Shown: one piece after another, positions 11,100 through 51,414 of the stretch
Layout: each line of letters begins with the position of its first letter
Numbering within the stretch: the stretch's first letter is position 1
DNA from: a virus
DNA length: 52,660 nt
IMG/VR virus record: IMGVR_UViG_3300045988_079011
Strand: one strand, 5' to 3'
Notes under the pieces: model-generated
The model's database searches: none
Told to the model about the DNA's origin: nothing
What the model saw: only the letters and a program-made list of their open reading frames with translations
Position numbers and translations under genes: made by a program

Positions 11100-11249
11100 G
11101 TCTCACTTATCATTGCGCAGAATAGCGCTTACATAAAAAAGCCTCTTACTGGCGAACGAGGGTATCTGCCCCCGGTCGTGCCGGTAAGAGGTGCTTTATG
11201 TTTAAATGGTAAGTGAGACGACTATTTAACAGGCCGGGGGCTTTTTTTT
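11100..11249 (+). ncRNA. Candidate ~150-nt structured RNA (class unknown) on the strand opposite the RT
   Basis: -7 box TACATTTG at 11088-11095. 10-bp closing stem GTCTCACTTA (11100-11109) / TAAGTGAGAC (11210-11219). Small hairpin GCGC-agaata-GCGC (11115-11128). Long imperfect hairpin 11142-11191. T8 at 11242-11249. Confidence 0.35.
11135..11191 (-). terminator. Rho-independent terminator of the RT / 161-aa ORF operon
   Basis: In RT sense: CCTCTTACCGG ... CCAGTAAGAGG long hairpin (with an inner imperfect helix) followed by TTTTTT. Confidence 0.6.
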
Positions 11250-11274
11250 ATCCTTCCCCCGAAGGGATTGTCAA

Positions 11275-11760
11275 TCATTCAATCCGATATAAATCCAAGT
11301 TGAATACATCTTTCCTTTTCCATCCTTCAGCCAGTGTGTTTTGGATGTGTCTGACCGCTTGAATGTAGAAGTCCTTCAGATTATCCAACTTTTCAAAGGT
11401 ATGGTATTCGGGCTGTTCATCCGAACCGAATTTGAATGTAACCGGAAGGGTCTCTCCGCCCGTCTGAACGGCCAAATCGTATGCTGCCTTATAGTTGTAT
11501 TGGTTCTCCGTAGAAAGCCATACAGGGGCGCCATTATAGGCGAATCCGGATAGGATAGCTGCATCAGTCTGGCTGTTATACCATGACATAACCAATGTGC
11601 GGATTTCCTCATCAGTAGGCTTGTGTCCGAACTCCTCTTCCATGTAGGAGGCAGAGCCGTTCTCTTTTTCCTGCACATCCCAGCGGATGCGCCATTTGTC
11701 TTTAACCGGGTTCGTGCATTCCATCAGCGATACACCGGCACTTCCTTCAACTCTTCTCAT
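11275..11760 (-). CDS. 161-aa protein translationally coupled to the RT (DUF4376-like?)
   Basis: ATGA overlap with the RT stop. Normal composition. The segment ILSGFAYNGAPVWLSTENQYNY...LDNLKDFYIQAVRHIQ recalls DUF4376 (from memory, unverified). Not Avd-like. Confidence 0.55.
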   Translation of the reverse strand: MRRVEGSAGVSLMECTNPVKDKWRIRWDVQEKENGSASYMEEEFGHKPTDEEIRTLVMSWYNSQTDAAILSGFAYNGAPVWLSTENQYNYKAAYDLAVQTGGETLPVTFKFGSDEQPEYHTFEKLDNLKDFYIQAVRHIQNTLAEGWKRKDVFNLDLYRIE

Positions 11761-13058
11761 GTAAACACGTATTTGGTTCTACCTTTGCCGAATGTCTCTG
11801 TCTTGATGGTCGTTTCAAACGGGAAACCATCCGGCATTTCCTTTACTTGTGCGAGAATATTCTTCATTTCCTCGCTGTTGGTGAAGAACTTCTTTGCTTC
11901 GCCGTTCACTTCGATGGCCACAATACAGCGGTCTTCTCCCTGCTCGGTCTTGATACCGGTCTCAAAGTCCTTCACTACAATCGGTAAGTTTACCAGTTCC
12001 CGGATGCTTACCACCACACCGGGAAATCGCTTCTTGCCGTCCTCCGGCTTGTAAGCGACATTCAAGTCTTTAAAACTTCTCATTTCTTTGCCTGTTAATT
12101 TTTTAAACAACTTATTACAGTCGGCGTGCTTCGTCATGCCGTAGAAACTGGCAATCAGTTCTCGCCGTCTTTTTCTCGATTTTACCTCGTGCATCTTCCG
12201 GGCAAACTTCTGCTTGATACGTTTCCGCAATCTTACATAGTCGGGACGGATAACATAGCCAAGGAAATCAATGCCTTCTTCTACAGGGAATACCCGTTCA
12301 TTCGGCTTTATTTCCAAGTCTATTTTTCCCATTTGCCTGTGAATAACATCACGAATCTTCCACAATTCCGCTTTCGTTTTACCGAGTACCAGTCCGTCAT
12401 CGCAATAGCGATAGTAATAACGAACCCCGTACTTATCCTTCAGATAGTGGTCTAAAAATACAGACAGAAGCAGATTTCCTGCCCCTTGTGAACTGCGCAG
12501 TCCGAAGCTTATACCTTCCGGCAGCAGCTTAACAAACCGCTCCAGTAGCACCAACAGCCTTTCGTCCTTGAACACCCTCCGGAAGCACCACATAACAAAG
12601 TCCTGCCGCGCATTGTCGTAAAACCTACGGATGTCAAACTTGTATGCGTAAAGTGTGCCTTCCGGGTCTTTTTGCAAATCGGTACGTATGCAGTTCATCA
12701 GATCATGAGTACCGCGCCTTTTGATGCTTGCACCGGTTGTCCGGATATAACGTTTTTGCAGGTGGCGGTCCACCACATTCATGATGGCAAACACAGCGAT
12801 GCGGTCTTTCATGGACAGGATCTGCAAAATACGTTTTTTACCGTATTCTTCAATTTCCCTCTCATGGTAGCCGCCCAGCCGGAATGAACCGTCCGCAATG
12901 GAAGCCGTCAGTTCGGCGATAATCTTCTCCCTATGGGCAAGCAGGAATCGTCCCTGCCTTGACCTCTTACGACCGGTTCCGCGAAGTACCGAATCGAATG
13001 CCTCCGACATATTGGAGTATTCGATGATTTCCTCGATAATATATCCTTCCCTGCGCAT
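11757..13058 (-). CDS. DGR-type reverse transcriptase
   Basis: 433 aa. GLRSSQ (aa 186-191) matches the DGR-specific GxxxSQ motif. Catalytic YYYRYCDDG (RYxDD). TR and spacer lie immediately upstream. About 108 aa of C-terminal extension. Confidence 0.9.
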   Translation of the reverse strand: MRREGYIIEEIIEYSNMSEAFDSVLRGTGRKRSRQGRFLLAHREKIIAELTASIADGSFRLGGYHEREIEEYGKKRILQILSMKDRIAVFAIMNVVDRHLQKRYIRTTGASIKRRGTHDLMNCIRTDLQKDPEGTLYAYKFDIRRFYDNARQDFVMWCFRRVFKDERLLVLLERFVKLLPEGISFGLRSSQGAGNLLLSVFLDHYLKDKYGVRYYYRYCDDGLVLGKTKAELWKIRDVIHRQMGKIDLEIKPNERVFPVEEGIDFLGYVIRPDYVRLRKRIKQKFARKMHEVKSRKRRRELIASFYGMTKHADCNKLFKKLTGKEMRSFKDLNVAYKPEDGKKRFPGVVVSIRELVNLPIVVKDFETGIKTEQGEDRCIVAIEVNGEAKKFFTNSEEMKNILAQVKEMPDGFPFETTIKTETFGKGRTKYVFT

Positions 13059-13171
13059 AAGCTATTGGTTAATAAACATGAAAGATAAGGGCCTTCCTTT
13101 CCCCGGATCTGACTTCTTCGAACTGATAACAGCCTACCAAACTCCACCCGACGCGTGATTTTTCAGCTTTC

Positions 13172-13239
13172 CACCCTAATGGGTGCTGTTGCTGTGGCTT
13201 GCTTCCCTCGGCACCGCTTCGGGGACACGTCCCCGGTGC
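13172..13239 (-). promoter_or_regulatory. DGR spacer-region hairpins between TR and RT
   Basis: In RT sense: GCACC-GGGGA-CGTG-TCCCC-gaagc-GGTGC, starting 14 nt after the repeat. A second hairpin is CACCC-ATTA-GGGTG. Confidence 0.5.
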
Positions 13240-13253
13240 TGTACGCCGATTAA

Positions 13254-13374
13254 TTAGATTTCCAGACGCGAGCCGATATTCGCATTCGTATTCGAAGCAT
13301 CGTTATTCGCATTCGCATTCGACACACCGCCATTCGCGTTCGCATTGTTGTACCCGCGATAGACCACACGGACT
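13254..13374 (-). repeat. DGR template repeat (TR), at least 121 bp
   Basis: Non-coding context with a unique upstream flank carrying its own -7 box. Adenine-rich AAY-codon design (11 AAY). A-free GC-rich 3' end GGCTCGCGTCTGG (IMH-like). Lies 195 nt upstream of the RT start. Confidence 0.75.
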
Positions 13375-13395
13375 ATCGGGAAGCTCCACCGGGTA

Positions 13396-13403
13396 CAAAG
13401 TTA
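13396..13403 (-). promoter_or_regulatory. Bacteroides-type -7 box for the TR-RT transcript
   Basis: TAACTTTG on the minus strand, in unique sequence 22 nt upstream of the first TR base. A TTTG lies 13 nt further upstream. Confidence 0.45.
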
Positions 13404-13433: not shown

Positions 13434-13667
13434 TTACACTATCCACCAAAATAGGGCCGACAATATGCCGCCTATGACGGTAAGAGACCAGTCTATCCAG
13501 TCCCAAAGTCCGCCTTTCAGTTTGTCTTTCAGTTCCAGACAGGAGGCTGCGACAGCTGCAGCATAGAGCGCTGTCCACGGGGTGAAGGCCAAAATGCCTA
13601 CCAACAAACCGCCAATAAGGTGTTTGTAGCGGTTGCTTTGTTTGAGAAATTCGATAATTTTGTTCAT
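13434..13667 (-). CDS. Small two-TM membrane protein (holin-like candidate)
   Basis: 77 aa with two hydrophobic helices (LIGGLLVGILAFTPWTALYAAAVAA; LTVIGGILSALFWWI). Confidence 0.5.
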   Translation of the reverse strand: MNKIIEFLKQSNRYKHLIGGLLVGILAFTPWTALYAAAVAASCLELKDKLKGGLWDWIDWSLTVIGGILSALFWWIV

Positions 13668-32915: not shown

Positions 32916-35900
32916 ATGGCAAAAAGGAAAATAAGCGGAATCATCAATGCGACTGAACATCCGATGAATCTTGAAACACCATGGAACCAGAAACAGCCGG
33001 ACGGCACCTATCATGCCTATGCCGGGGACGATGTAGAAGCGTTTCTGAAGAAGGAACTGTCAAACCGTACCCCTACTGAGGAACTGGTGAGCGGCGAGAC
33101 GAAGCCCCCTACATCCGGAACGGTGTTTGATGCAATGGTGGGTACGGTGACGGACGTGGATGTGCAGGACAGCGAGGACGGCACTCAATATGTGATGACC
33201 GTGAAGCAGAAGGATAACCAGGGCGGCGAGAGCTCGAAGGAGGTGCGCTTCTCGAAGTACACCGACGACGACAAGGTGGTGTTGTACATTGACCTGACGG
33301 ACAGCGGCGGCGCGGGACTTCCCTCGCAGCAGTACCTGGCACTGGGAAGCGGTTTTGTGGTGAAATACTCTGTGGGCGTGGGTACTGCCGGTGGCGGTAC
33401 GGTGGACGGCTACAGCGACCTGAAAGCCCGCGTGATTGTGAAACGCGGTTCGACCGTGATCAGTGAGTTCCGGGATGCAGAGTTTGTGGGCGTGACAGCC
33501 GGACAGGCTTATACCTTTGACGCTTCGCCCTACCTGAAGGATGCCACCGCCTATACCGTGCAGGTGGAAGCGCAGGCAACCTACCAGGGCGGCACACTGA
33601 TGAAGACGGCCACGGCCAAGGTGACCATGGTGGCCATGGAGCTGGAGACCAGCTACTCGGCGGGCAACGGGCTGGCCGACGGGGGATATAAAAATGACGT
33701 GAACATCCCCTTTACTGCCAAGGGCACGAGCGGGGAGAAGAACATCTACTACCGCATCAACGGCGGGCAGGCCTTTACCCTCGGTCTTTCGGCCGGCAGC
33801 GGTGTGCAGCAGAAGAACGTGACCATCCCACTGGCTCAGATGCAGGAGGGTACGAACGTGGTGGAAGCCTACGCGCAGCATGAGAACTCCGGTGTGGTGA
33901 GCCGGGTGCATTACATTACGCTGCTGAAGGCAGGAGGCGGTGTGACAGCGTATGCCGGCCTGATGTTCAGCCACCGGGCAGCGGGGTTCCAACGCGACTG
34001 GAAACATCCGGTGCTGGAGGCAGAGCAGTTCACGGCATGGGCCTTTACGTATGCCGGCTATGACCGCGATGCGTACACGGCCCGTGTGAAAGTGACGGGC
34101 CAGGGCAGCGTGGTGAAGGAAGACCTGCTGCAGCGCGGTGAGACCGGCAGCTACGGACGGACGAACGTGAACGTGGAACCGCTGGACTACCGTGTGTCGT
34201 GCGGCGATGCCGTGCTTGAGGTGCAGGTGAACACCACATCGCACCCGGACATTGAAGCCACGCTGGCACCGGATGCCGTGTGTACGTTTGACGCCTTCGG
34301 GCGAAGCAACACGGAAAACAACCCGGCAAGCTGGGTGAGCGGTGACAAGCGCATGGAGTTCCGGGACGTGCTGTGGAGCGTGAACGAATATGGTGCCGGT
34401 AGCGGCTGGCACAAGGACCGCCTGCTGCTGGCCGGTGGTGCAGGTATGACCCTGACCGCTGACGGCGGGTACCGCCCCTTCAACGAGGCGGACAAACCCG
34501 AAGGCTTTGCTATTCGTGATGTGGGCATGACACTTGAGATAGAATACAGCACGGCCAACGTGACGGACACGGATGCGGAGCTGATCACCTGCCTGGGGCA
34601 GCTGGACAACGGGAACCGGTACGGGCTGATTGTGACCCCGGAAGAGGCCAAGTTCCTGACCGGAGTGGTGACCGAGGCGATGGATGCCGGACAGGTGCTG
34701 CGCTATGAGGACTCGGTGGGTACGAAGTTCCAGCCGGGCACGAACATCCGCATTACCTACGTGTTCTATCCGAACGTGCAGACCAATGAACAGCGCACGC
34801 TGATCGGTTTCTATGTGAACGGTGAAGAGTCGGCTGCTTCCAAGTGGCTCGACAAGGTGAATTTTGACATTCAGAGCCAGCTGGAATTTAAGTCGGCAGG
34901 TGCCGACCTGAACGTGAAGAGCGTGCGTATCTATAACAAGGCGCTGACCTCGGATGAGGTGCTGAACAACTACATCGTGGACCGCAACCACCTGGAGGAT
35001 GCCGACGGGGAACCGGGCGTGCGCTCGCTGGATGAGGACAACCGCGTGCTGAACGAAGGAGACACGGTGAGCATGGAGAAGCTGATGGGGCTGATGAAGA
35101 AGCGCCGGAACTCGATCCTGGTACTGATAGGCACGGGCAGCGTGGGCAGTGAGGTTCCGAGCGAGAGCGACACGCTGAACGTGGTGGATGCACTGGCCCA
35201 GCTGAACGACAAAAAGGCCAACAAGCTGGTAAGGGAGGTCCGTTTCTATAACGGAGAGGACAGGACGCTTGACTTTATCCTTACCAACGTATATGTCCGT
35301 ATTCAGGGTACTTCTTCCGTGAACTATGCCAGAAAGAACTTCCGTTTCTACTTCCAGAAGACGGCAAGCGGCTGGACGGTTACATTGAGCTACGGGGAGA
35401 TTGACGGAAACGGCAGGCAGAAGAATCCGGTGGTAACTACCGGCAAAAAAAATCTCTTCAAGTTGCGCAGGAACTCCGTAGGCGCGAAGCTGGCATGTTC
35501 CAAATGCGACTTCTCGGACTCGTCCATGACCACCAATACCGGTGGTGCGAAGCTTATCAATGACGGACTGAAAGAGATGGGGCTGCTTACGCCTGCCCAG
35601 CGTTACGCCAAAGACCACGGGCTGGAGGATGATTACCGTTCGGCCATCGACGGCCTGCCGTGCGACCTGTTCGTAGCGAAGAGTGCCGACGAAGACCTGA
35701 CCTATTACGGCCAGTACAACATGAACAACGAGAAGAGCGACAGCTACCCCATCTTCGGGCAGGATGAGACCATCGGCGGCGAGAAATGGGGCGAGGGCGA
35801 CACGCTGAACTATCTGGAAGCCGACGAGGAAGGACACAAGCAGTACCTGCCAATCTGCTTCGAGACGCTGAACAACTCCAATCCGCTGTGCCTGTTCCAC

Positions 35901-38900
35901 TGGTTGCCGAGTACCGAACCGGAGCATAAGGATTTCATGGACTACAACTTTGACGGAGGACTGGAGTTCAACCATCCGAAAGATACCTTCTGGGCTGACG
36001 GAGGCGGTGATGCCGAGGAAGAACCGAATATGAAAGACCACTTGGGGCAGGGTGATGTGTACGATAAGATGTATAAGGCTACCGACCGCATGATGAGCTT
36101 CGTTTACCGCTGTGTGAAGGAAACTCCTGCCGGAAAGAGTATGACTTACAGTATGGAATCGCATGCGTTCGAGGGGGTAGATTATGAAGATGATGGCGAC
36201 AAGTTCCCTACCGCTAAATGGAAGAGCGATACGTTTAAGAAAGAGGCATCGAAGTATTTCGACCTTCCCCATCTGATAGCTTACTATCTGTACGTGCAGT
36301 TTAACCTTGGTGTCGACCAGCTTGCCAAGAACATGCTTATCCGTACTTGGGACGGGGTGAAATGGTTGATTACTTATTATGACGGAGACTGCCAGTTGGG
36401 TTCAGACAACAAGTCATTCCTTACGGGAAAATATAACGATAACCGTCAGACCAAGCGCGACGGGGCTTATGTGATGCAGGGTCATAACTCGTGGCTGTGG
36501 AACCTCATCGTGGCCAATTGCTGGGACATGATTGTGGAGATTATGGTGAGCGGATGGAACGGGGGCGCAAGCTTCATGAGTGCCTTCAGTATCCAGAAAG
36601 CCATTGACCATTTCGATACCGAACAGATGAAGAAGTGGTGCTCACGCCTCTATAACAAGTCCGGCATCTTCAAATACATCTACCCGTTCCTGAACGAAAT
36701 GCCGGTAGGTGCTGACGGTGCCAAACAGACGTATCCGCAAATCTACGGTCTGAAGGGTTCGTTAAAAGCACACCGGAACTACTTCATCCAACGCAGGTAC
36801 GACCTGAAGCAGGTGGAGTACGGCTATGTATCTACGCTGGGTGCCCAGTTCTACCAGAGTACGGCATCGCTGGACAAGGCTTATAAACTGAAACCGATGC
36901 AGTACCGGCTGACCATCCCTTACCGTGTGCAATTATCCACCTCAAACGGTATACAGGCTGACAGCGGCGTGGTGGATGCAGACGTGCTCCATTCCCTGCA
37001 GCTGACCCGTGCCTTCGGTGAGAACGACCCGCTGAAGATTATCGGTGCAGCCAAAATCAAGGAGCTGGTATGGCACGAGGATGCGTTCGCAATCGGCTTC
37101 AACTTCGGTCTGCTGACCTCACTGGTAAAACTCGACATGAGCGTGGAGAAAGCCAGCGGTTACCGGAACGGCTCGTTCATGGCTTCGACGAACGGCATGC
37201 TGCTTTTGGAAGAAGTGAACATGCGGAACAACCGGCTGGCCCGGAACGGGGACAACGGGAATGTGGCTACTTTGGACTTGAGCTGGCAGGGCCGCCTGAA
37301 GAAACTGGACGTGAGGGGTACGGGGCTGACCCGTGTGAAACTGGCCACCGGTGCGCCCGTTGTGCAGTTATGCCTGCCGGACACGATTGAGGAACTGTTC
37401 CTGGAATATCTGACCAAGCTGTCCGATAGTGGCCTGATACTGGAAGGCATCAATAATGTGCGGGGCTACCGCTACACCAACTGCCCCGGCATCGACGGGT
37501 TCGCTATGCTGGAACGCCTACATCAGGCCAGACTGAACGGCAGCGGCAAGCTGGAGCGCTTCGTGCTGGAGATAGACCGGGAAGACGACGGAACCCTGCT
37601 GAAGAAGTATTACGACTACGGAACGTATACGCAGACGGGTGCCGTGGATGACCGGCATTCGGGACTGAGGGGCAAGCTGACCCTGACGAAGTATCTGGCC
37701 GATGAGGAACTGGAGAAGTATGCCGCCCGTTATCCGGAACTGACCATCAAGCAGCCGCCCTATACGATGATCGAGTTTGACGACAGCGTGGCCGACGATG
37801 CCAATATTTCAAACCTGGACAACAAGACCGGATACAAGTTCGGGAATGCGTACAAAATGAGCGGGCATGTGAATGCCATCCTGTCCAAGCGCCACCGCGT
37901 ACTGGCCAAGGTGACCAGGATGCCTACGAACCGGAAGGTGGAGATAGCCGGGCAGCAGGTGGAAGTGAACAACCCGGACGGGGAGATGACCTATTTCCCC
38001 CTGCATGACGAAAGCTCGAACTTCTATGCCGATGCGGAGGATATGAACGACTGCACGGTGGCGAAGCTGGACGGCAGCGAGGGAGACTGGATGATGTATG
38101 AACCGTTCTACTGGAGCAAGGGTATCAATGACTATCTGGCTGGCAAGAAGTACGCCTGCTACAGCAGCTATCCGGAGGACGAAATGCCCCCTGTTCCGGA
38201 GGCAACTATACTGACGCTGGATGCGATCAAGGAAACACAGGGCGGCTGGCTGGGTGAACGCAAGATCATGAGCGGAAAACCTACGTTGATGGAATCCTAT
38301 ACGACTGACAAGGCCTATTCGGTTTGTAAGGTGGATGTATCCGGCTACAGACGTGTCCGCTTTCCGAGCGTTCCCGGTACGGGGCTTATCGGCAGTGTGT
38401 TTGTGGATGATGCAGGAAGCATCCTGAAGAGCATCGTGGTGCCGACCATCGGCTTGAAATTTGAAGCCGGCATGTATCTGATAGCAGACGTTCCGGAACG
38501 TGCTACAGCCCTGCATTTCTCCATTCTGAACACGGCAGAGTTTGACTGCGTGGTACTGAGCCACAGCGACAAGATAGAGGACATGGAACCGGATTGGGTG
38601 GCCAATGAGGAGCATCTGTGTGCCGTTGTGGGCAGTTCGGTGGTGGGCAGCAAGCTTCGTGCCTGCATAACCGGTACCTATACAGCCGGAAGCATGACCT
38701 GGACGGACTTCCACTACTACAGCCAGCAGCGGGGCATGCAGCAGATAGATGCGCTGATGCACAGCCGCATTGCGAATCTGAGCTATGCACGGTACGGTCG
38801 CAGGGACATGCAGGAACAGTGCGGTGCCGGGGAGCATAATTACAATAGAATAACGGGTGGAACGGCAGAGCATGGGATGACAGATACCATCGGCTACGAT

Positions 38901-39407
38901 GAAGCGTATGCCATCAACAACAAAATCACGAATTCGCTGATTGAAGGTCTGGTGCACCAGTATGCCTGGTATAAGAGCCGTGACGAATACGGACAGGAGA
39001 CTGTGGTGCAGGTGAAAAATATCTGCTGCCTGGGCTATGAGGACATCTACGGCAACAAGTATGACATGATGGACGGCGTGGATCTGCCGAACGACAGCGG
39101 CAACGTGGGCAAATGGCGCATCTGGATGCCGGACGGCACGGTGCGCTGGGTGCAGGGGAAAAAGGACAGCGGACAGTGGATTTCAGGCGTGGCACACGGC
39201 AAGTATATGGACCTGGTTCCGGTGGGTAATCTGAACGGATCATCTTCTACTTACTATACCGACATGTACTGGATAAGCACCGCTACAGTCCGTGTGGTCT
39301 ATCGCGGGTACAACAATGCGAACGCGAATGGCGGTGTGTCGAATGCGAATGCGAATAACGATGCTTCGAATACGAATGCGAATATCGGCTCGCGTCTGGA
39401 AATCTAA
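32916..39407 (+). CDS. Giant multidomain tail fibre / receptor-binding protein, DGR target (C-terminal C-type-lectin-fold VR)
   Basis: 2163 aa. LamG-like segment (VKSVRIYNKALTSDEVLNNYI). CotH-like motifs (VRIQGTSSVNYARKNFRF; NLFKLRRNS; WDGVKWLITYYDGDCQLG). LRR-like segment (aa ~1370-1550). C-terminus VVYRGYNNANANGGVSNANANNDASNTNANIGSRLEI fits the CLec-type VR pattern RG...N..IG.RL. Confidence 0.85.
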   Translation: MAKRKISGIINATEHPMNLETPWNQKQPDGTYHAYAGDDVEAFLKKELSNRTPTEELVSGETKPPTSGTVFDAMVGTVTDVDVQDSEDGTQYVMTVKQKDNQGGESSKEVRFSKYTDDDKVVLYIDLTDSGGAGLPSQQYLALGSGFVVKYSVGVGTAGGGTVDGYSDLKARVIVKRGSTVISEFRDAEFVGVTAGQAYTFDASPYLKDATAYTVQVEAQATYQGGTLMKTATAKVTMVAMELETSYSAGNGLADGGYKNDVNIPFTAKGTSGEKNIYYRINGGQAFTLGLSAGSGVQQKNVTIPLAQMQEGTNVVEAYAQHENSGVVSRVHYITLLKAGGGVTAYAGLMFSHRAAGFQRDWKHPVLEAEQFTAWAFTYAGYDRDAYTARVKVTGQGSVVKEDLLQRGETGSYGRTNVNVEPLDYRVSCGDAVLEVQVNTTSHPDIEATLAPDAVCTFDAFGRSNTENNPASWVSGDKRMEFRDVLWSVNEYGAGSGWHKDRLLLAGGAGMTLTADGGYRPFNEADKPEGFAIRDVGMTLEIEYSTANVTDTDAELITCLGQLDNGNRYGLIVTPEEAKFLTGVVTEAMDAGQVLRYEDSVGTKFQPGTNIRITYVFYPNVQTNEQRTLIGFYVNGEESAASKWLDKVNFDIQSQLEFKSAGADLNVKSVRIYNKALTSDEVLNNYIVDRNHLEDADGEPGVRSLDEDNRVLNEGDTVSMEKLMGLMKKRRNSILVLIGTGSVGSEVPSESDTLNVVDALAQLNDKKANKLVREVRFYNGEDRTLDFILTNVYVRIQGTSSVNYARKNFRFYFQKTASGWTVTLSYGEIDGNGRQKNPVVTTGKKNLFKLRRNSVGAKLACSKCDFSDSSMTTNTGGAKLINDGLKEMGLLTPAQRYAKDHGLEDDYRSAIDGLPCDLFVAKSADEDLTYYGQYNMNNEKSDSYPIFGQDETIGGEKWGEGDTLNYLEADEEGHKQYLPICFETLNNSNPLCLFHWLPSTEPEHKDFMDYNFDGGLEFNHPKDTFWADGGGDAEEEPNMKDHLGQGDVYDKMYKATDRMMSFVYRCVKETPAGKSMTYSMESHAFEGVDYEDDGDKFPTAKWKSDTFKKEASKYFDLPHLIAYYLYVQFNLGVDQLAKNMLIRTWDGVKWLITYYDGDCQLGSDNKSFLTGKYNDNRQTKRDGAYVMQGHNSWLWNLIVANCWDMIVEIMVSGWNGGASFMSAFSIQKAIDHFDTEQMKKWCSRLYNKSGIFKYIYPFLNEMPVGADGAKQTYPQIYGLKGSLKAHRNYFIQRRYDLKQVEYGYVSTLGAQFYQSTASLDKAYKLKPMQYRLTIPYRVQLSTSNGIQADSGVVDADVLHSLQLTRAFGENDPLKIIGAAKIKELVWHEDAFAIGFNFGLLTSLVKLDMSVEKASGYRNGSFMASTNGMLLLEEVNMRNNRLARNGDNGNVATLDLSWQGRLKKLDVRGTGLTRVKLATGAPVVQLCLPDTIEELFLEYLTKLSDSGLILEGINNVRGYRYTNCPGIDGFAMLERLHQARLNGSGKLERFVLEIDREDDGTLLKKYYDYGTYTQTGAVDDRHSGLRGKLTLTKYLADEELEKYAARYPELTIKQPPYTMIEFDDSVADDANISNLDNKTGYKFGNAYKMSGHVNAILSKRHRVLAKVTRMPTNRKVEIAGQQVEVNNPDGEMTYFPLHDESSNFYADAEDMNDCTVAKLDGSEGDWMMYEPFYWSKGINDYLAGKKYACYSSYPEDEMPPVPEATILTLDAIKETQGGWLGERKIMSGKPTLMESYTTDKAYSVCKVDVSGYRRVRFPSVPGTGLIGSVFVDDAGSILKSIVVPTIGLKFEAGMYLIADVPERATALHFSILNTAEFDCVVLSHSDKIEDMEPDWVANEEHLCAVVGSSVVGSKLRACITGTYTAGSMTWTDFHYYSQQRGMQQIDALMHSRIANLSYARYGRRDMQEQCGAGEHNYNRITGGTAEHGMTDTIGYDEAYAINNKITNSLIEGLVHQYAWYKSRDEYGQETVVQVKNICCLGYEDIYGNKYDMMDGVDLPNDSGNVGKWRIWMPDGTVRWVQGKKDSGQWISGVAHGKYMDLVPVGNLNGSSSTYYTDMYWISTATVRVVYRGYNNANANGGVSNANANNDASNTNANIGSRLEI
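39287..39407 (+). repeat. DGR variable repeat position (assembled sequence identical to the TR)
   Basis: In frame with the last 40 codons of the target gene. 121/121 identical to the reverse complement of 13254-13374. All 11 AAY codons are intact. Confidence 0.7.
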
Positions 39408-39421
39408 TTAATCGGCGTACA

Positions 39422-39489
39422 GCACCGGGGACGTGTCCCCGAAGCGGTGCCGAGGGAAGCAAGCCACAGCAACAGCACCCATTAGGGTG
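39422..39489 (+). promoter_or_regulatory. Hairpins downstream of the repeat (copy of 13172-13239)
   Basis: Exact reverse-complement copy. GCACC-GGGGA-CGTG-TCCCC-gaagc-GGTGC at 39422-39450 and CACCC-ATTA-GGGTG at 39476-39489. Confidence 0.5.
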
Positions 39490-39602
39490 GAAAGCTGAAA
39501 AATCACGCGTCGGGTGGAGTTTGGTAGGCTGTTATCAGTTCGAAGAAGTCAGATCCGGGGAAAGGAAGGCCCTTATCTTTCATGTTTATTAACCAATAGC
39601 TT

Positions 39603-40904
39603 ATGCGCAGGGAAGGATATATTATCGAGGAAATCATCGAATACTCCAATATGTCGGAGGCATTCGATTCGGTACTTCGCGGAACCGGTCGTAAGAGGTC
39701 AAGGCAGGGACGATTCCTGCTTGCCCATAGGGAGAAGATTATCGCCGAACTGACGGCTTCCATTGCGGACGGTTCATTCCGGCTGGGCGGCTACCATGAG
39801 AGGGAAATTGAAGAATACGGTAAAAAACGTATTTTGCAGATCCTGTCCATGAAAGACCGCATCGCTGTGTTTGCCATCATGAATGTGGTGGACCGCCACC
39901 TGCAAAAACGTTATATCCGGACAACCGGTGCAAGCATCAAAAGGCGCGGTACTCATGATCTGATGAACTGCATACGTACCGATTTGCAAAAAGACCCGGA
40001 AGGCACACTTTACGCATACAAGTTTGACATCCGTAGGTTTTACGACAATGCGCGGCAGGACTTTGTTATGTGGTGCTTCCGGAGGGTGTTCAAGGACGAA
40101 AGGCTGTTGGTGCTACTGGAGCGGTTTGTTAAGCTGCTGCCGGAAGGTATAAGCTTCGGACTGCGCAGTTCACAAGGGGCAGGAAATCTGCTTCTGTCTG
40201 TATTTTTAGACCACTATCTGAAGGATAAGTACGGGGTTCGTTATTACTATCGCTATTGCGATGACGGACTGGTACTCGGTAAAACGAAAGCGGAATTGTG
40301 GAAGATTCGTGATGTTATTCACAGGCAAATGGGAAAAATAGACTTGGAAATAAAGCCGAATGAACGGGTATTCCCTGTAGAAGAAGGCATTGATTTCCTT
40401 GGCTATGTTATCCGTCCCGACTATGTAAGATTGCGGAAACGTATCAAGCAGAAGTTTGCCCGGAAGATGCACGAGGTAAAATCGAGAAAAAGACGGCGAG
40501 AACTGATTGCCAGTTTCTACGGCATGACGAAGCACGCCGACTGTAATAAGTTGTTTAAAAAATTAACAGGCAAAGAAATGAGAAGTTTTAAAGACTTGAA
40601 TGTCGCTTACAAGCCGGAGGACGGCAAGAAGCGATTTCCCGGTGTGGTGGTAAGCATCCGGGAACTGGTAAACTTACCGATTGTAGTGAAGGACTTTGAG
40701 ACCGGTATCAAGACCGAGCAGGGAGAAGACCGCTGTATTGTGGCCATCGAAGTGAACGGCGAAGCAAAGAAGTTCTTCACCAACAGCGAGGAAATGAAGA
40801 ATATTCTCGCACAAGTAAAGGAAATGCCGGATGGTTTCCCGTTTGAAACGACCATCAAGACAGAGACATTCGGCAAAGGTAGAACCAAATACGTGTTTAC
40901 ATGA
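39603..40904 (+). CDS. DGR-type reverse transcriptase (arm copy)
   Basis: Exact reverse-complement copy of 11757-13058 with an identical 433-aa translation. Confidence 0.9.
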   Translation: MRREGYIIEEIIEYSNMSEAFDSVLRGTGRKRSRQGRFLLAHREKIIAELTASIADGSFRLGGYHEREIEEYGKKRILQILSMKDRIAVFAIMNVVDRHLQKRYIRTTGASIKRRGTHDLMNCIRTDLQKDPEGTLYAYKFDIRRFYDNARQDFVMWCFRRVFKDERLLVLLERFVKLLPEGISFGLRSSQGAGNLLLSVFLDHYLKDKYGVRYYYRYCDDGLVLGKTKAELWKIRDVIHRQMGKIDLEIKPNERVFPVEEGIDFLGYVIRPDYVRLRKRIKQKFARKMHEVKSRKRRRELIASFYGMTKHADCNKLFKKLTGKEMRSFKDLNVAYKPEDGKKRFPGVVVSIRELVNLPIVVKDFETGIKTEQGEDRCIVAIEVNGEAKKFFTNSEEMKNILAQVKEMPDGFPFETTIKTETFGKGRTKYVFT

Positions 40905-41386
40905 GAAGAGTTGAAGGAAGTGCCGGTGTATCGCTGATGGAATGCACGAACCCGGTTAAAGACAAATGGCGCATCCGCTGGGATGTGCAGGAAAAAGAGA
41001 ACGGCTCTGCCTCCTACATGGAAGAGGAGTTCGGACACAAGCCTACTGATGAGGAAATCCGCACATTGGTTATGTCATGGTATAACAGCCAGACTGATGC
41101 AGCTATCCTATCCGGATTCGCCTATAATGGCGCCCCTGTATGGCTTTCTACGGAGAACCAATACAACTATAAGGCAGCATACGATTTGGCCGTTCAGACG
41201 GGCGGAGAGACCCTTCCGGTTACATTCAAATTCGGTTCGGATGAACAGCCCGAATACCATACCTTTGAAAAGTTGGATAATCTGAAGGACTTCTACATTC
41301 AAGCGGTCAGACACATCCAAAACACACTGGCTGAAGGATGGAAAAGGAAAGATGTATTCAACTTGGATTTATATCGGATTGAATGA
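40901..41386 (+). CDS. 161-aa RT-coupled protein (arm copy)
   Basis: Exact copy of 11275-11760. Confidence 0.55.
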   Translation: MRRVEGSAGVSLMECTNPVKDKWRIRWDVQEKENGSASYMEEEFGHKPTDEEIRTLVMSWYNSQTDAAILSGFAYNGAPVWLSTENQYNYKAAYDLAVQTGGETLPVTFKFGSDEQPEYHTFEKLDNLKDFYIQAVRHIQNTLAEGWKRKDVFNLDLYRIE

Positions 41387-41411
41387 TTGACAATCCCTTC
41401 GGGGGAAGGAT

Positions 41412-41561
41412 AAAAAAAAGCCCCCGGCCTGTTAAATAGTCGTCTCACTTACCATTTAAACATAAAGCACCTCTTACCGGCACGACCGGGGGCAGATACC
41501 CTCGTTCGCCAGTAAGAGGCTTTTTTATGTAAGCGCTATTCTGCGCAATGATAAGTGAGAC
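41412..41561 (-). ncRNA. Candidate structured RNA (arm copy)
   Basis: Exact copy of 11100-11249. Confidence 0.35.
41470..41526 (+). terminator. RT-operon terminator (arm copy)
   Basis: Exact copy of 11135-11191. Hairpin followed by T6 at 41521-41526. Confidence 0.6.
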
Positions 41562-41589
41562 AATGCAAATGTACGAAATTTAACTGGAT

Positions 41590-41832
41590 ATGAAAGTAAT
41601 TGAGATACTAAAATTGAACAGAGAGCTTTTAAAAACGTGCCATTACATGGGCATACGACCCGATGACGTGCAATATATAGAACTATATAATGAATATAAC
41701 AAGTTGCAGACCAATGGTGAAAAAGTGTCTTATATCGTAGCTACGCTTTCCCTACGATATGGCATCAGTGAGCGAAAGGTGTATGACCTGATCAAGCGTT
41801 TTAAAACCGACTGCAATTTGTGTGCAGTGTAA
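41590..41832 (+). CDS. Small HTH protein (arm copy)
   Basis: Exact copy of 10829-11071. Confidence 0.5.
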   Translation: MKVIEILKLNRELLKTCHYMGIRPDDVQYIELYNEYNKLQTNGEKVSYIVATLSLRYGISERKVYDLIKRFKTDCNLCAV

Positions 41833-41870
41833 TCAGGACTTCCTCCCACTAAAGGCAAACTCCCCTACCC

Positions 41871-41878
41871 TACCTTTG
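41871..41878 (+). promoter_or_regulatory. -7 box TACCTTTG (arm copy)
   Basis: Exact copy of 10783-10790. Confidence 0.4.
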
Positions 41879-41903
41879 TATCGCAATAAATAACATTCAT
41901 ATC

Positions 41904-42542
41904 ATGGACAAGTATTATCAAATCTTAGGCAAGGTGCTTTCGTCCGGAAAGATGCAAAGCAATAAAAAAGGGAATATCCGCTACCTACTGAATGAACAGC
42001 TGACGCTGCTCCCTGCCGACCTTCTTGATATATTCGAGGGGCATACCATAGCGCGGAAGAAGTTAAAAAACGAGTTACAACTGTTTATGAGGGGCGAACG
42101 AAACGTGGAAAAATACAGGGAGGCCGGAATCAACTGGTGGGACTACTGCGGCTCTATCCTTGTGAACAGCTACCCAACCTATTTTGAAAAACTGCCGCCA
42201 CTCATCGAACGCATAAACAGGGAAAAAAGGAACAGCAAAAACTATATATTGTTTCTCGGATCTACAGGAACAGAAAGCAACCAGGCTCCATGCCTTAGTC
42301 TTGTTCAGTTCCAGATAGAGCAAGGAGAACTGGTCATGACCGCCTATCAGCGAAGCAGCGATGCGAATTTAGGACTGCCGGCAGATATTTATCATTTGTA
42401 TCTAATATCAAGACAGATTGAGTTGCCACTAAAATCCATCACCCTGAATCTGGGGAATGTGCATATTTACGAAAACAACATCGACAAAACAGAACAGCTG
42501 CTTGCCGGCAATGAAAATGTAAAATTTGAATTGAACGTATGA
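41904..42542 (+). CDS. Short ThyA-family enzyme (arm copy)
   Basis: Exact copy of 10119-10757. Confidence 0.75.
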   Translation: MDKYYQILGKVLSSGKMQSNKKGNIRYLLNEQLTLLPADLLDIFEGHTIARKKLKNELQLFMRGERNVEKYREAGINWWDYCGSILVNSYPTYFEKLPPLIERINREKRNSKNYILFLGSTGTESNQAPCLSLVQFQIEQGELVMTAYQRSSDANLGLPADIYHLYLISRQIELPLKSITLNLGNVHIYENNIDKTEQLLAGNENVKFELNV

Positions 42543-43378
42543 GAAAGATGTATCTGTCAGCCCCTCTCCCATTTGTCGGGCAAAAGCGTATGTTAGCCAA
42601 GGAATTCATGAAAGTGCTGGAGCAATATCCGGATGGAACATTGTTTGTTGACCTGTTCGGTGGCTCCGGATTGTTGTCTCACATTACCAAATCCCTCAAG
42701 CCCCACTCTACTGTTATCTATAATGACTTTGATAACTACCGCTTCCGCATGAAGCACATTCCGCAAACGAATCAGCTGCTTGCTGACATTCGCGAAATGG
42801 TAGGGAATTCCGTACCACGTCATAAAATCATTAAAGGAGAACTGCGTGAACGAATATTCAGCCGCATCGAGCAGGAAGAGAATAGCACCGGATATGTGGA
42901 TTTCATTACCCTCTCCTCCTCTATCTTGTTTTCCATGAAATACAAACTGTCTGTTCAGGATATGCGGAAGGAAGCTTTATACAACAATATACGCAAGACC
43001 GGCTACCCGGAATGTACGGACTATCTCGAAGGGCTGGAAATCGTATCTTGCGATTACAAGGAAGTATTCAACCGGTATAAAGATATTCCTGGAGTAGTAT
43101 TTCTTGTTGATCCGCCCTATCTGTCCACTGACGTAGGGACCTATAACATGTACTGGAATATGGCAGACTATCTGGATGTGCTGAATGTACTGAAGGGGCA
43201 TTCATACGTATATTTCACATCCAACAAATCTTCAATTCTGGAGCTGTGCGAATGGATAGGTAAAAATAGGGATTTAGGTAATCCTTTTGAAAACTGCACA
43301 AAGGTGGAATTCAATGCTCACATGAATTACAACTCTTCTTACACAGATATGATGCTTTACAAGAAAGAGGCTGCCTGA
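42539..43378 (+). CDS. N6-adenine DNA methyltransferase (arm copy)
   Basis: Exact copy of 9283-10122. Confidence 0.85.
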   Translation: MRKMYLSAPLPFVGQKRMLAKEFMKVLEQYPDGTLFVDLFGGSGLLSHITKSLKPHSTVIYNDFDNYRFRMKHIPQTNQLLADIREMVGNSVPRHKIIKGELRERIFSRIEQEENSTGYVDFITLSSSILFSMKYKLSVQDMRKEALYNNIRKTGYPECTDYLEGLEIVSCDYKEVFNRYKDIPGVVFLVDPPYLSTDVGTYNMYWNMADYLDVLNVLKGHSYVYFTSNKSSILELCEWIGKNRDLGNPFENCTKVEFNAHMNYNSSYTDMMLYKKEAA

Positions 43379-43404
43379 TTGCGTTTACTTTGCCTGTATT
43401 GAAC

Positions 43405-43446
43405 AAAAAAGCCGCAGACGGTAATTTGTACGTCCGCGGCTTTTTC
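43405..43446. terminator. Bidirectional terminator (arm copy)
   Basis: Exact copy of 9215-9256. Confidence 0.7.
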
Positions 43447-43462
43447 TGTCTAATAAAGACGG

Positions 43463-43897
43463 CTATTGCAGCCGCTTGATGGCCACACACTGATATACCT
43501 CGATACTTTCCACAATATCCTCATGGTTGTGATTGGTATCACTCTCCACCAGATCCAGCTCCAAAAAGGTCTCCCCGCTCAATCCGGCAAGCTGTGCATG
43601 AAGCAGTCCGGACAGGTCAAACACCTTCAGCGCATCCTCCTGCAGCTCGCTGCCCTCAGCACTCGAACCTTCCCAGTCCGTCACGATGTGCAGTTTAATC
43701 AAAGGTTCTGCCCGGTATTCCACACCGGGAACAATCGCATTCCACTGTATAGGGCAGAATTCCACAAAGACAGCCGGACGCTCCCAGTTTTCTTCCTGTT
43801 CGATGAATTCCACATTATGGTTCCACAAGTCTATGTGCTTGATAAGGTCAATGGCCTTCAGCTCCCGGCAAAGCATCCGGTAAAGTTCTTTTCTCAT
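43463..43897 (-). CDS. Hypothetical structural/connector protein (arm copy)
   Basis: Exact copy of 8764-9198. Confidence 0.5.
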   Translation of the reverse strand: MRKELYRMLCRELKAIDLIKHIDLWNHNVEFIEQEENWERPAVFVEFCPIQWNAIVPGVEYRAEPLIKLHIVTDWEGSSAEGSELQEDALKVFDLSGLLHAQLAGLSGETFLELDLVESDTNHNHEDIVESIEVYQCVAIKRLQ

Positions 43898-44454
43898 TTT
43901 CTTATGATATTATATTCAATGGTAAAATACTCTGTTAGGTTCTCTTCTACAATCTCACGGACGGCTTTTTCCACTTCAGGCGATGTGCCGAGGAAACGGC
44001 GTCGGGGAATCCTGATGGTGCTTCCTGCTTTCTTTAAAGCCATGAACATCCAAAAATCGGCTTCTGTATCAAGCCGGACATTTCGTTTGTCTTTTCGAAG
44101 TTTGCCGTCTTTTCTTCTACCGAACGCTCCGGTTGCCTCATAATACTTATGCCAGAAGAAACGCTTCATCCGCTTGGTCACCACTATTTCACCGCCATCA
44201 TTATGAATGGCCGCATAGGGCAGAGAGGTAAAGAAGGTAATGCTGTTTTCCGTTGTCCGACTTCCGATACTTTTCCGAAGCGCCCCGGTATCTGTTAGTA
44301 TGGCTCTACCTTCATTCCGGATGGGGCTTTTCCGTCGCTGCCATTTCTCACTGAAAAAAGCCTGCCGTTCAAAGTTCTTGTCAAACTCATCACTCATTTC
44401 CACCTGAATGTCTTTCAGTATCCGGGCCACTACTTTTTTTACGTTTTCATTCAT
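43894..44454 (-). CDS. Mu G / HK97 gp10-like morphogenesis protein (arm copy)
   Basis: Exact copy of 8207-8767. Confidence 0.6.
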   Translation of the reverse strand: MNENVKKVVARILKDIQVEMSDEFDKNFERQAFFSEKWQRRKSPIRNEGRAILTDTGALRKSIGSRTTENSITFFTSLPYAAIHNDGGEIVVTKRMKRFFWHKYYEATGAFGRRKDGKLRKDKRNVRLDTEADFWMFMALKKAGSTIRIPRRRFLGTSPEVEKAVREIVEENLTEYFTIEYNIIRK

Positions 44455-44684
44455 TCCCAGTCAAAGTTAAATTTCAATTGTACCGTATCGTCCGGCAAAT
44501 CATTTTTAGGGTCTGCGGACGCTTTAAGCATATTGTAGAATGTACGCTCACTAATAGCATACACAGGATATATGTACCGCCGCCATATTTCACGGTTCGG
44601 TACACCGTGACTGGCATAATGGTCATATATCCTGTTTACTTCTACTACACGCTTCTGATAACTGACTCCGTGCCGCTTTCCCAT
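44451..44684 (-). CDS. Small putative DNA-binding protein (arm copy)
   Basis: Exact copy of 7977-8210. Confidence 0.4.
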   Translation of the reverse strand: MGKRHGVSYQKRVVEVNRIYDHYASHGVPNREIWRRYIYPVYAISERTFYNMLKASADPKNDLPDDTVQLKFNFDWE

Positions 44685-44690
44685 ATAGGT

Positions 44691-44927
44691 TTAATCGTTC
44701 ATAGACGGTTCTACTTTAGGTTTATAGGGACGGATGTCAAGCGTCATTTTTGCGCTTACCGTTACCCGGCCACTTCCTTCACACTGTCTGCAGACTTCCT
44801 CAACGGTTTCGCTTCGCTTCTTTCCAAAGATCCGAGAGGGATATTCTACAACTTTCTTTACTTTACCTGTACCGTAGCAAGCACGGCACAGGGCTACTTT
44901 CGGAGATTTCTCCACTTCTTGTATCAT
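44691..44927 (-). CDS. CxxCxGxG zinc-finger protein (arm copy)
   Basis: Exact copy of 7734-7970. Confidence 0.55.
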   Translation of the reverse strand: MIQEVEKSPKVALCRACYGTGKVKKVVEYPSRIFGKKRSETVEEVCRQCEGSGRVTVSAKMTLDIRPYKPKVEPSMND

Positions 44928-44938
44928 AGTTCTATTAT

Positions 44939-45607
44939 TTATGATTCTGTCATTCCCAGAGGGATAGGTTTCCACATTCCGTTTTCGTTTTTGATTTCAG
45001 CACGGATAAACTGTTTGCTCACTTCCGGCTGGTAGGCTTCCTCAATGATACGCACACCTTCAATGAAACGGTCATCTCCGGTTTCCATGGCCACTTTGCG
45101 AAGCTGCACGATGCGTGAAGCCTTCAGCGTTCCCTTGGCATCACGGGCCAACAGACGAAGCACCATGCTCACCAGTGCCTTGGTCTTTTCATCTTTGGCC
45201 AGACCTTCGATGTATTCCTTCACAATGGCTATACCGTCTTCCACCGTGTCACGGTAACCGTCGGTCACATACACACCCAGCGTGATTCGTTTGTCGCCTT
45301 CACTGTTAGTAAAGGTATGGCTGCGCTGGTCATCCTTCACCTTGGTCTTGAAAAGGTCTGCCTTCATTTCCAGAATGGTTTTGAAGTTGTCCATCACAGT
45401 CTGCTTGCTTGCCTTGATCTGCTCACTGATGCCCAGCAGTACCGGAATGGAGTTTGCTATCTCCTCATCCACCATCTGTTTGTACATTTCGCGGTCATTC
45501 TTGGCTTTTTCCTCTGCCGCTTTCTTTGCTTTTTCTCTCTGGAAGGCTTCAAATTCCGCCTTTTCCTCTGCCGTCATTACCACGGTCGTTTGTTTCATTT
45601 CTTCCAT
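44939..45607 (-). CDS. DUF3164-like protein (arm copy)
   Basis: Exact copy of 7054-7722. Confidence 0.5.
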   Translation of the reverse strand: MEEMKQTTVVMTAEEKAEFEAFQREKAKKAAEEKAKNDREMYKQMVDEEIANSIPVLLGISEQIKASKQTVMDNFKTILEMKADLFKTKVKDDQRSHTFTNSEGDKRITLGVYVTDGYRDTVEDGIAIVKEYIEGLAKDEKTKALVSMVLRLLARDAKGTLKASRIVQLRKVAMETGDDRFIEGVRIIEEAYQPEVSKQFIRAEIKNENGMWKPIPLGMTES

Positions 45608-45625
45608 GATTCTTGTTTTTTGGGG

Positions 45626-45808
45626 TTATTGGTTTTCATAATCCTGCATTTCAGGTTCGTCTTCCATCAGCATAGCCTCTCCGTTGGCGTATGCCCAGTC
45701 AGCCAATTCACTATAAAACTCGGCTGCATCTTGCTTCTCCATATCAGAGGCAAGCAGGTTGATTTCCTTTTTCAGATTCTCTAAAATCTTTGTGTTTCTA
45801 TTTTCCAT
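45626..45808 (-). CDS. Small acidic protein (arm copy)
   Basis: Exact copy of 6853-7035. Confidence 0.45.
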   Translation of the reverse strand: MENRNTKILENLKKEINLLASDMEKQDAAEFYSELADWAYANGEAMLMEDEPEMQDYENQ

Positions 45809-45814
45809 ATCCTA

Positions 45815-46321
45815 TCAGTTTGCCGGAGCATCAGGGTCAATCTGAATGAGTGATACCATGCTCACGGGGTTAATCGTTTGCTTTTCTTTCCTGGGCTTCA
45901 AGCCGCCTTTCCGTTGTATGGACCGAAGCTTTACCGCCAGTTCATCCAGTTCGTCCACCGTAATCTGTCTGAACGCTTTGCCGACTATTCGGGGATTACT
46001 GCAGAAGTCATTGATTCGTGCCCAGTCGGATGTATCTATGCCCAGCTTCTGCATCAGGTTCAGACAGAGACTCCGTTTCCGCCGCAGCTCCTCACGCAGC
46101 TTCTGTCGCCATTCGTCTTGTCCGCTCAGCTTCTCCAGAGCCGTACAGCAGGCTTCATACTCCTTGGCTGTCATTTCCTTCAGACTGTCCGTCCGGTTCC
46201 ACGTGTACTGCAGCACAATGCTTTTCTTGAATTCTTCCCGGTCTCCTGTACAGGGAAGCTTGTTGAACAATGTGTAGAACCGGGCGAAATTGGTTACTTC
46301 CTGTGCCATGTCATTTACCAT
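45815..46321 (-). CDS. Hypothetical early protein (arm copy)
   Basis: Exact copy of 6340-6846. Confidence 0.5.
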   Translation of the reverse strand: MVNDMAQEVTNFARFYTLFNKLPCTGDREEFKKSIVLQYTWNRTDSLKEMTAKEYEACCTALEKLSGQDEWRQKLREELRRKRSLCLNLMQKLGIDTSDWARINDFCSNPRIVGKAFRQITVDELDELAVKLRSIQRKGGLKPRKEKQTINPVSMVSLIQIDPDAPAN

Positions 46322-46583: not shown

Positions 46584-46594
46584 ATCGACTAATT

Positions 46595-47068: not shown

Positions 47069-47069
47069 T

Positions 47070-48819: not shown

Positions 48820-48857
48820 AATTCTAACGCTGTTTTAATGTTGTTCTAATTCTATTC

Positions 48858-50897: not shown

Positions 50898-50906
50898 AGC
50901 CGCCTC

Positions 50907-51281: not shown

Positions 51282-51307
51282 ATCTCACTTGTTTTAATGA
51301 TTAATAT

Positions 51308-51356: not shown

Positions 51357-51414
51357 GTGTGTCTTTCCACACCGTCACCCGTCTCTTAACGCCTTCCGGG
51401 TTGTCACGCTGGGT

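Follow-up and report, generated by a model that had tools for sequence, protein, structure and literature searches.

In the diversity-generating retroelement (DGR) of Bordetella phage BPP-1, the accessory protein Avd is required and binds the reverse transcriptase (RT). Avd has about 128 amino acids (aa) and an isoelectric point (pI) of about 9.5 (Wu et al. 2018, PMC5758913). In the same survey, no avd homologue was found in about a quarter of the DGRs, and 75 of the 372 elements carried no accessory gene of any kind. RT lineage 3 as a whole is without avd; within it, architecture E1 is confined to sub-lineage 3a, to Bacteroides and its relatives only, and is marked by CH1, a gene for a protein of 160-169 aa with a pI of 4.7 +/- 0.2 and no motifs, found only in DGRs without avd, HRDC, and MSL (PMC5758913). 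Avd-less DGRs raise the question of how their complementary DNA (cDNA) is primed and homed. Those of the Hankyphage type belong to the commonest DGRs of the human gut and are active in Bacteroides thetaiotaomicron, which can be cultured (activity in culture: PMC12135933). The present analysis concerns a DGR core of this kind in the IMG/VR virus record IMGVR_UViG_3300045988_079011, a stretch of 52,660 nucleotides (nt) called the window below, and in particular an acidic 161-aa protein encoded directly downstream of its RT.

The region is favoured, with a probability of roughly 0.55, to be the core of an Avd-less DGR (architecture E1 of lineage 3a) in a Bacteroidales phage of the Mu type that resembles Hankyphage, composed of the template repeat (TR), the RT, and CH1, with CH1 serving as a fibre chaperone. 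The RT would copy the TR RNA into cDNA, misincorporating at adenines, and this copy would replace the variable repeat (VR) in the C-terminus of a giant tail-fibre gene; no Avd would take part. CH1 would act as an assembly chaperone for the diversified fibre. The TR-RT unit would sit between the fibre gene and its downstream chaperone gene, and the inheritance of fibre, TR, RT, and CH1 as a single block would keep CH1 beside the RT. The same odds apply to the 161-aa protein taken by itself, for which a role as fibre chaperone is preferred to that of a DGR accessory factor.

Both the Avd-less RT lineage and the presence of a CH1 gene beside the RT are already known from Wu et al. 2018, and the system is a specifically catalogued one. 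As far as literature searches show, the apparently new elements are the placement of CH1 among the DUF4376 chaperones, the retention of CH1 in relatives without an RT, a domain of the RT that resembles the oligonucleotide/oligosaccharide-binding (OB) fold, and the assembly artefacts described below.

CH1 as a member of the DUF4376 family

The 161-aa gene occupies positions 11275..11760 of the minus strand, and its start overlaps the RT stop as ATGA. Its product is acidic (pI 4.96, 18.7 kDa) and probably represents a tail-fibre assembly chaperone. The match to Pfam DUF4376 (PF14301) reaches 23.1 bits (E 1.1e-4), below the gathering cutoff of 25; among 25 diverse homologues, 17 match the family (best E 1.8e-8), and most of the database homologues have a precomputed PF14301 match. 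The AlphaFold2 model, made with 25 homologues, is of the mixed alpha/beta type, with a predicted local distance difference test score (pLDDT) of 84 and a predicted template modelling score (pTM) of 0.75. It contains nine strands and four helices (three long, one short and C-terminal), arranged as three N-terminal strands followed by the three long helices, which are interleaved with hairpins. A Foldseek search against predicted viral structures (BFVD) returns many DUF4376 phage proteins at probability 1.0 with template modelling scores (TM-scores) of 0.40-0.55, coming from Bacillus, crAss-like, and other phages. At the family level, the 161-aa protein belongs to DUF4376.

Several members of this family have been connected with tail fibres. 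Gp27 of Alteromonas phage V22 is a DUF4376 tail-fibre chaperone needed for host recognition (PMC7289586), and the function of the Campylobacter CJIE1 H-fibre needs a co-expressed downstream DUF4376 gene (PMC7882524). Gp9 of phage A5, which contains a DUF4376 domain, is listed as a tail-fibre chaperone (PMC10579305). For the 161-aa protein itself, NCBIfam and PHROGs give no function (the PHROGs family is phrog_19239, function unknown), Foldseek finds no match to its model in the PDB at E < 0.1, and solved structures searched with a sequence profile of the CH1 family likewise yield none.

The protein fits the CH1 class in size and acidity (161 aa, pI 4.96, only a sub-threshold DUF4376 signal). 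Its gene fits the CH1 context in lying directly downstream of the RT with no other accessory gene, all hosts being Bacteroidales. The supporting example of Wu et al. is the DGR ABQC02000022.1_61713_62543 (PMC5758913). On the assumption that contig and scaffold coordinates coincide, 62543 is the RT start in Phocaeicola plebeius DSM 17135 (L008; 67245-4703+1). The L008 RT is 98% identical to that of the window, and the product of the next gene shares 89% identity with the 161-aa protein. Judging by its sequence and setting, the 161-aa protein is most probably the published CH1. The idea of an accessory gene at this place has likewise been published, as CH1 (Wu et al. 2018, PMC5758913) and under the name 'Avd' in the records of PMC12135933. 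Benler et al. 2018 described, near the RT, 'a small ORF' (open reading frame) with Avd-like pI and molecular weight (PMC6199706), and a 161-aa homologue is labelled 'Avd' in a 2025 PLoS Biology Hankyphage paper and its GenBank records (PMC12135933). On homology grounds, the 'Avd' label in the Hankyphage records is incorrect. The fibre-chaperone role is worth testing before a DUF4376 gene counts as a DGR component.

Among about 45 window proteins compared with Pfam, ten of them (eight small ones included) also with NCBIfam, no Avd (PF05635), HRDC, or MutS_I was found, and the 161-aa protein has no PF05635 match. Since it is acidic, of mixed alpha/beta fold, and a member of DUF4376, it is not a basic four-helix-bundle Avd. 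The lack of a recognisable Avd, the ATGA overlap, and a DUF4376-like character had all been put forward in the original prediction, a reading of the DNA letters made before this analysis, and all three are borne out, the last at the family level. As lineage 3 is avd-free but CH1 occurs only in 3a, Avd independence probably does not rest on CH1.

Another small gene lies just upstream of the TR (13434..13667, minus strand) and encodes a 77-aa predicted membrane protein with two hydrophobic helices, as judged from sequence. In relatives with the contiguous Hankyphage-type layout (class B, as opposed to class A, which shares the gene layout of the window), it is placed between VR and TR, i.e., in the avd position. 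It was considered as an Avd substitute and rejected: the protein is membrane-like, has no Pfam or NCBIfam match, and falls into a PHROGs family of unknown function, while the ORF is frameshifted in L015 and absent from Bacteroides phage jmh72_hp, which has an unrelated 64-aa ORF instead.

Linkage of CH1 to the RT and to the fibre gene

The neighbourhood of CH1 was surveyed at 80 loci each of GTDB species genomes (60-93% identity to the 161-aa protein) and of IMG/VR (35-75% identity, with RTs at 39-92%). A number of observations weigh against the chaperone reading. The chaperone function is assigned from family membership only, and no solved chaperone structure in the PDB matches the 161-aa model in Foldseek. 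Seen from the 161-aa protein, an RT is directly upstream at nearly all of the ~150 loci with upstream sequence; seen from a distant RT of the BS-TP4 type, with 44% identity to that of the window, CH1 is present at 77 of the 77 loci with room downstream. The RT-CH1 adjacency is near-obligate down to ~40% RT identity and in three phage backbones, and CH1 always comes after the RT, never between the fibre gene and the TR. In the Bacteroides phage BS-TP4 (64 kilobases, kb; L220), a RelE/XRE toxin-antitoxin pair (3404-4064) is located between the giant fibre gene and the RT, and CH1 still follows directly after the RT. The two genes overlap by 1 or 4 nt in about half of 136 distinct RT-CH1 pairs, most of the others being 0-75 nt apart. 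In L087 (IMGVR_UViG_3300045988_079680), a class A relative ~91% identical to the window, TR, RT, and CH1 are missing as a single 2.15-kb block, with ~60 unrelated nt at 10990-11200 in place of window 13395-11246. The identity of the 161-aa protein also tracks that of the RT core (partial r 0.58) more than that of the fibre C-terminus (0.15), in a crude covariation test that uses one reference sequence and ignores phylogeny.

These features could reflect a true accessory factor that replaces Avd and is built on a recruited DUF4376 chaperone scaffold. CH1 would then bind the RT, perhaps together with the OB-like extension or the RNA, and cDNA synthesis or homing would depend on it. Such a function is possible but rather unlikely. 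It would account for the near-obligate adjacency seen from both sides and across phage backbones, the frequent start-stop overlap, the joint loss of TR, RT, and CH1 in L087, and the way in which the 161-aa identity follows the RT core. The restriction of CH1 to DGRs without Avd, HRDC, and MSL (Wu et al., PMC5758913) points in the same direction. When the block left the fibre gene in the class A lineage, CH1 remained with the RT; however, the relocated block also holds a Mor-like gene, ThyA, and a methyltransferase, so that staying with the RT is not specific to CH1. An acidic protein (pI 4.96, as opposed to ~9.5 for Avd) is moreover a poor nucleic-acid binder, and DUF4376 is widespread in phages without a reported DGR, its tested members being fibre chaperones.

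The co-occurrence itself is open to two interpretations. The trio of giant fibre, RT, and CH1 is found in phages of the Mu type, in one of the integrase type, and in others of 64 kb, and because the giant fibre gene is always co-inherited, co-occurrence cannot separate a chaperone from an accessory factor. Five RT-less relatives keep an intact full-length CH1, which speaks against a function tied to the RT. In three of them (L014, L067, and L140) the gene comes directly after the fibre gene, with gaps of 79, 41, and 232 nt, respectively, and in the other two (L046 and L207) after the MuF gene. In the window, CH1 follows the RT at a distance of 26 kb from the fibre gene and is not immediately downstream of the fibre.

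The original prediction had suggested that the 161-aa protein might supply the accessory function and that its homologues should be looked for beside DGR RTs, where they almost always are. The near-invariable RT linkage thus supports the suggestion, whereas the acidity, the alpha/beta fold, the DUF4376 membership, and the retention in RT-less relatives do not. A fibre-associated module occurring without RTs had been named beforehand as the finding that would speak against it, and L014, L067, L140, L046, and L207 present exactly this arrangement. The present evidence weakens the hypothesis that the 161-aa protein replaces Avd.

In a related scheme, which is an unlikely one, CH1 would be a chaperone-fold, obligate RT partner recruited by lineage-3a DGRs and working with the OB-like RT domain in place of the Avd pentamer. 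If true, hypermutation of the fibre tip might be coupled to fibre assembly, and the system would represent a second, unrelated solution to the DGR accessory-factor problem.

RTs that are nearly identical are also followed by 161-aa variants of 64-93% identity, a sign of recombination where RT and CH1 meet. Such exchange would agree with CH1 performing both jobs or neither, e.g., with another structural or assembly role such as that of a virion fibre-tip cap. The link to the RT might then be only historical, and an Avd-like function might come from host factors or from the RT extension. Pfam, NCBIfam, PHROGs, and PDB families provide no function that would argue otherwise, and as many as 75 of 372 DGRs do without an accessory gene (Wu et al., PMC5758913). 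Nevertheless, the position and intact frame of CH1 are tightly conserved over deep divergence, so that its role should be tied to the fibre-DGR block, and this third option appears quite improbable. An apparent RT-CH1 fusion in the single contig L293 (4920-7070) differs from L291 by one TAA-to-GAA change at the RT stop, by which RT, a 130-nt spacer, and CH1 share a reading frame; it may be a sequencing variant and was not used as evidence.

The RT, its C-terminal extension, and adenine diversification

The RT ORF (433 aa; 11757-13058, minus strand) contains SFGLRSSQ and RYCDD and matches Pfam RVT_1 at E 2.7e-11. Residues 1-322 (12093..13058, minus strand) form a core of the DGR type, carrying GLRSSQ and RYCDD and aligning over nearly its full length with the Bordetella phage DGR RT, bRT. 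This protein (8ub7) is the best solved-structure match (E 3.9e-18), RT residues 3-319 corresponding to bRT 4-317. A motif 4 of the form [I/V/L]GxxxSQ, a YxDD motif, and bRT as the closest relative place the enzyme in the DGR clade, in accordance with the two motifs on which it had originally been recognised.

The remaining ~110 residues (~323-433; 11760..12092, minus strand) lie past the end of the bRT alignment and are absent from bRT. C-terminal extensions are carried by ~20% of DGR RTs (Wu et al. 2018, PMC5758913). In the AlphaFold2 model of the extension (pLDDT 79), the strands follow the OB-fold order (b1-b2-b3-helix-b4-b5), and its Foldseek matches in the PDB are non-significant (E 0.1-0.4) and mostly involve OB-fold single-strand-binding domains (Teb1, hSSB1, HIN domains, RPA, and LEF-3). 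On the basis of the model, the extension looks OB-like; that the call rests on topology and non-significant Foldseek matches is a further point to set against the overall interpretation. The segment is 84-100% identical in most relatives whose RT core is 60-80% identical, and its homologues are found within the RT family only. Avd independence most likely resides in the RT itself, possibly in the conserved OB-like extension. The nucleic-acid-binding role taken by Avd in other DGRs could reasonably fall to this predicted domain, which is a better candidate for the missing function than the 161-aa protein. The original prediction had likewise named the extension as a possible source of the accessory function.

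Stand-alone 108-aa homologues of the extension were considered as a separate accessory gene and rejected, as the contigs concerned start within the RT gene and the gene calls are truncated. Very many public contigs (e.g., L216-L219) start ~30-45 nt before the Met codon of RT position 326 (window ~12090-12115), and the 108-aa 'protein' called from Met326 is indexed in 811 blocks of the collection. Since conservation is far higher in the extension than in the RT core, mixed-strain assembly graphs probably branch there, or the site is a recombination boundary.

The TR comprises 113 nt (13262..13374, minus strand) with 28 adenines, most of them in AAT/AAC codons. Its homology to the TR annotated in jmh72_hp and to that of L015 includes the TR-specific 5' and 3' flanks. 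Between TR and RT lies a non-coding spacer of 203 nt (13059..13261, minus strand), the 3' part of the DGR RNA, which contains the palindrome GGGGAC-GT-GTCCCC and is conserved in L015 and jmh72_hp. The distance of 195 nt reported earlier agrees with this value when counted from the TAA used there instead of the RT ATG. The predicted fold of TR plus spacer RNA is no more stable than that of shuffled sequence (z -0.05). The 79-aa ORF previously noted across the RT start does exist (12908-13147, GTG start) and has no family match.

On the other side, the TR-RT-CH1 block is bounded by a stretch of hairpins and an A-run (11219..11274, no strand assigned). Homology to the relatives with contiguous layout stops at 11219, and the L087 deletion ends at ~11246. 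The strong terminator proposed to close the RT-CH1 pair is not supported by this stretch, which has no canonical terminator for the minus strand: read along the coding strand, the hairpin past the 161-aa stop precedes an A-run, and the sole hairpin with a T-tract (11231-11243) faces the plus strand.

A TR/VR search within the window pairs the repeat with nothing but an identical copy, which is itself an assembly artefact and not a real VR. The VRs of 31 related contigs differ from the window TR mainly at adenine sites. The L106 VR differs at 11 of the 28 adenine sites and at none of the 85 others, and those of L108, L110, and L115 at 10/28 and 0/85. Seven of ten class A contigs show 10-13 differences at the 28 adenine sites versus 0-1 at the other 85, and class A VRs also differ from one another almost solely at adenine sites. 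In class A, the TR-RT is ~26 kb from the VR and on the opposite strand, with the VR at the right end of the prophage; given the adenine-specific diversity of these VRs, the DGR appears to act in trans across 26 kb. In the relatives, the VR is located ~20 codons before the stop of the giant tail-fibre ORF. The fibre residues encoded by window 38400-39286 contain no Pfam domain; for the Hankyphage target, a C-type lectin domain was reported by Benler et al. 2018 (PMC6199706).

Layout of the window and comparison with known systems

Positions 39287-52660 of the window are the perfect reverse complement of 1-13374 (13,374 nt), by which the RT and the 161-aa ORF are each present twice. The junction of this duplicate sits exactly at the 5' edge of the TR/VR repeat. 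The DGR target, the giant tail-fibre gene, is genuine up to the VR 5' edge (32916..39286, plus strand), where it is collinear with the annotated jmh72_hp tail-fibre gene and with L015. The full ORF (32916-39407, 2163 aa) ends in TR sequence and the TR-specific 3' flank (GGAAATCTAA). In all relatives, the fibre gene has instead a diversified VR, then GCCTTCCGCGG and a ~20-aa coding tail ending in REVA*, and in many public contigs the real VR comes directly after the position equivalent to 39286. The assembler ran from the fibre gene into the TR, an inverted copy of the VR in this lineage, and then re-traversed the left arm; this passage left the 2163-aa fibre ORF chimeric at its C-terminus and the real VR missing from the window. 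The inverted ends of the window, i.e., the second copy of 1-13374 (39287..52660, plus strand) joined to the fibre gene via the TR/VR repeat, and the fibre C-terminus are assembly artefacts. TR/VR repeats can thus lead assemblers into large inverted duplications and chimeric target genes.

The left-hand gene order (early genes, methyltransferase, ThyA, Mor-like gene, 161-aa gene, RT, TR, 77-aa gene, MuF, portal, and terminase) is confirmed by seven independent IMG/VR contigs (L084-L090), which are 83-99.6% identical to the window. The ten class A contigs that extend past the VR have ~0.5 kb in common and then run into unrelated host sequence, as is expected where a Mu-type prophage with random insertion sites has its right end. 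On account of the order in L084-L090, and of the end of class A contigs in host DNA soon after the fibre gene, a contiguous Hankyphage-like layout with the right-hand copy as the real one was rejected. A genuine 13.4-kb terminal inverted repeat, in a linear genome with two RT-CH1 copies and a fibre ending in an unmutated VR, would be in keeping with a repeat that is perfect and symmetric about the middle of the window. It is nevertheless extremely improbable: the junction falls precisely at the TR/VR 5' edge, the fibre ORF ends in a TR-specific flank where every relative has a VR and the 20-aa coding tail, and the ten related contigs pass from the fibre gene through ~0.5 kb into the host at a prophage end. 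Furthermore, the left-hand arrangement alone is backed by independent contigs, and a TR/VR collapse of the same kind is seen in L119.

With the artefact set aside, class A has, after MuF, a block composed of the 77-aa gene, TR, RT, CH1, the Mor-like gene, ThyA, and the methyltransferase. In class B (Hankyphage p00, jmh72_hp, L015, and many contigs), this block follows directly on the fibre gene, so that the fibre gene with its VR, the 77-aa ORF, TR, and RT are contiguous, jmh72_hp being without the 77-aa gene. The sequence TACGCTTCGTTTT is present at window 27-41 and also ~170-195 nt past the anchor AGAATATTGATAGGG at the class A right end (L099 and others), in the same orientation; TACGCTTCGTTTT is a possible transposase-binding site. 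By comparison with jmh72_hp, the window seems to end several hundred nt before the true left end is reached.

Some further features lie outside the DGR. Between the convergent 144-aa and methyltransferase genes lies a perfect palindromic hairpin of 40 nt (9216-9255, copy at 43406-43445), with an A-run and a T-run at its sides; it is probably a bidirectional terminator. Genes for a DUF4406/nucleoside 2-deoxyribosyltransferase-like protein (5593-6066), a D12-class adenine methyltransferase (9283-10122), and a thymidylate-synthase-like protein (10119-10757) may constitute a set for DNA modification or nucleotide metabolism.

Among the described systems, the DGR resembles architecture E1 of lineage 3a and the DGR of Hankyphage p00 in the combination of TR, RT, and a ~161-aa acidic protein without avd. 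Further shared traits are the targeting of a giant fibre C-terminus, Bacteroidales as hosts, and a transposable prophage of the Mu type. The RT has 98% identity to the P. plebeius prophage RT catalogued by Wu et al. and 79% to that of jmh72_hp. Unlike in Hankyphage, the lineage of the window has the block from the 77-aa gene to the methyltransferase after MuF, ~26 kb from the VR and on the other strand, whereas jmh72_hp has the order fibre (VR), TR, RT, 161-aa homologue, Mor-like gene, ThyA, and methyltransferase.

With BPP-1 (mtd-avd-TR-brt), the system has in common an RT core that aligns end-to-end with bRT, an adenine-rich TR and spacer before the RT, and a tail-fibre target with a C-terminal VR. 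It differs in the absence of Avd, the avd slot between VR and TR being taken in close relatives by the poorly conserved 77-aa membrane ORF, in the additional RT C-terminal domain of ~110 aa, and in the acidic DUF4376 gene after the RT. CH1 is comparable to the DUF4376 chaperones of other phages in being small and acidic, in its DUF4376 domain, and in its position directly downstream of the fibre gene in DGR-less relatives. Unlike in the phages of those chaperones, the TR-RT unit is found between the fibre gene and the CH1 gene in DGR-bearing phages.

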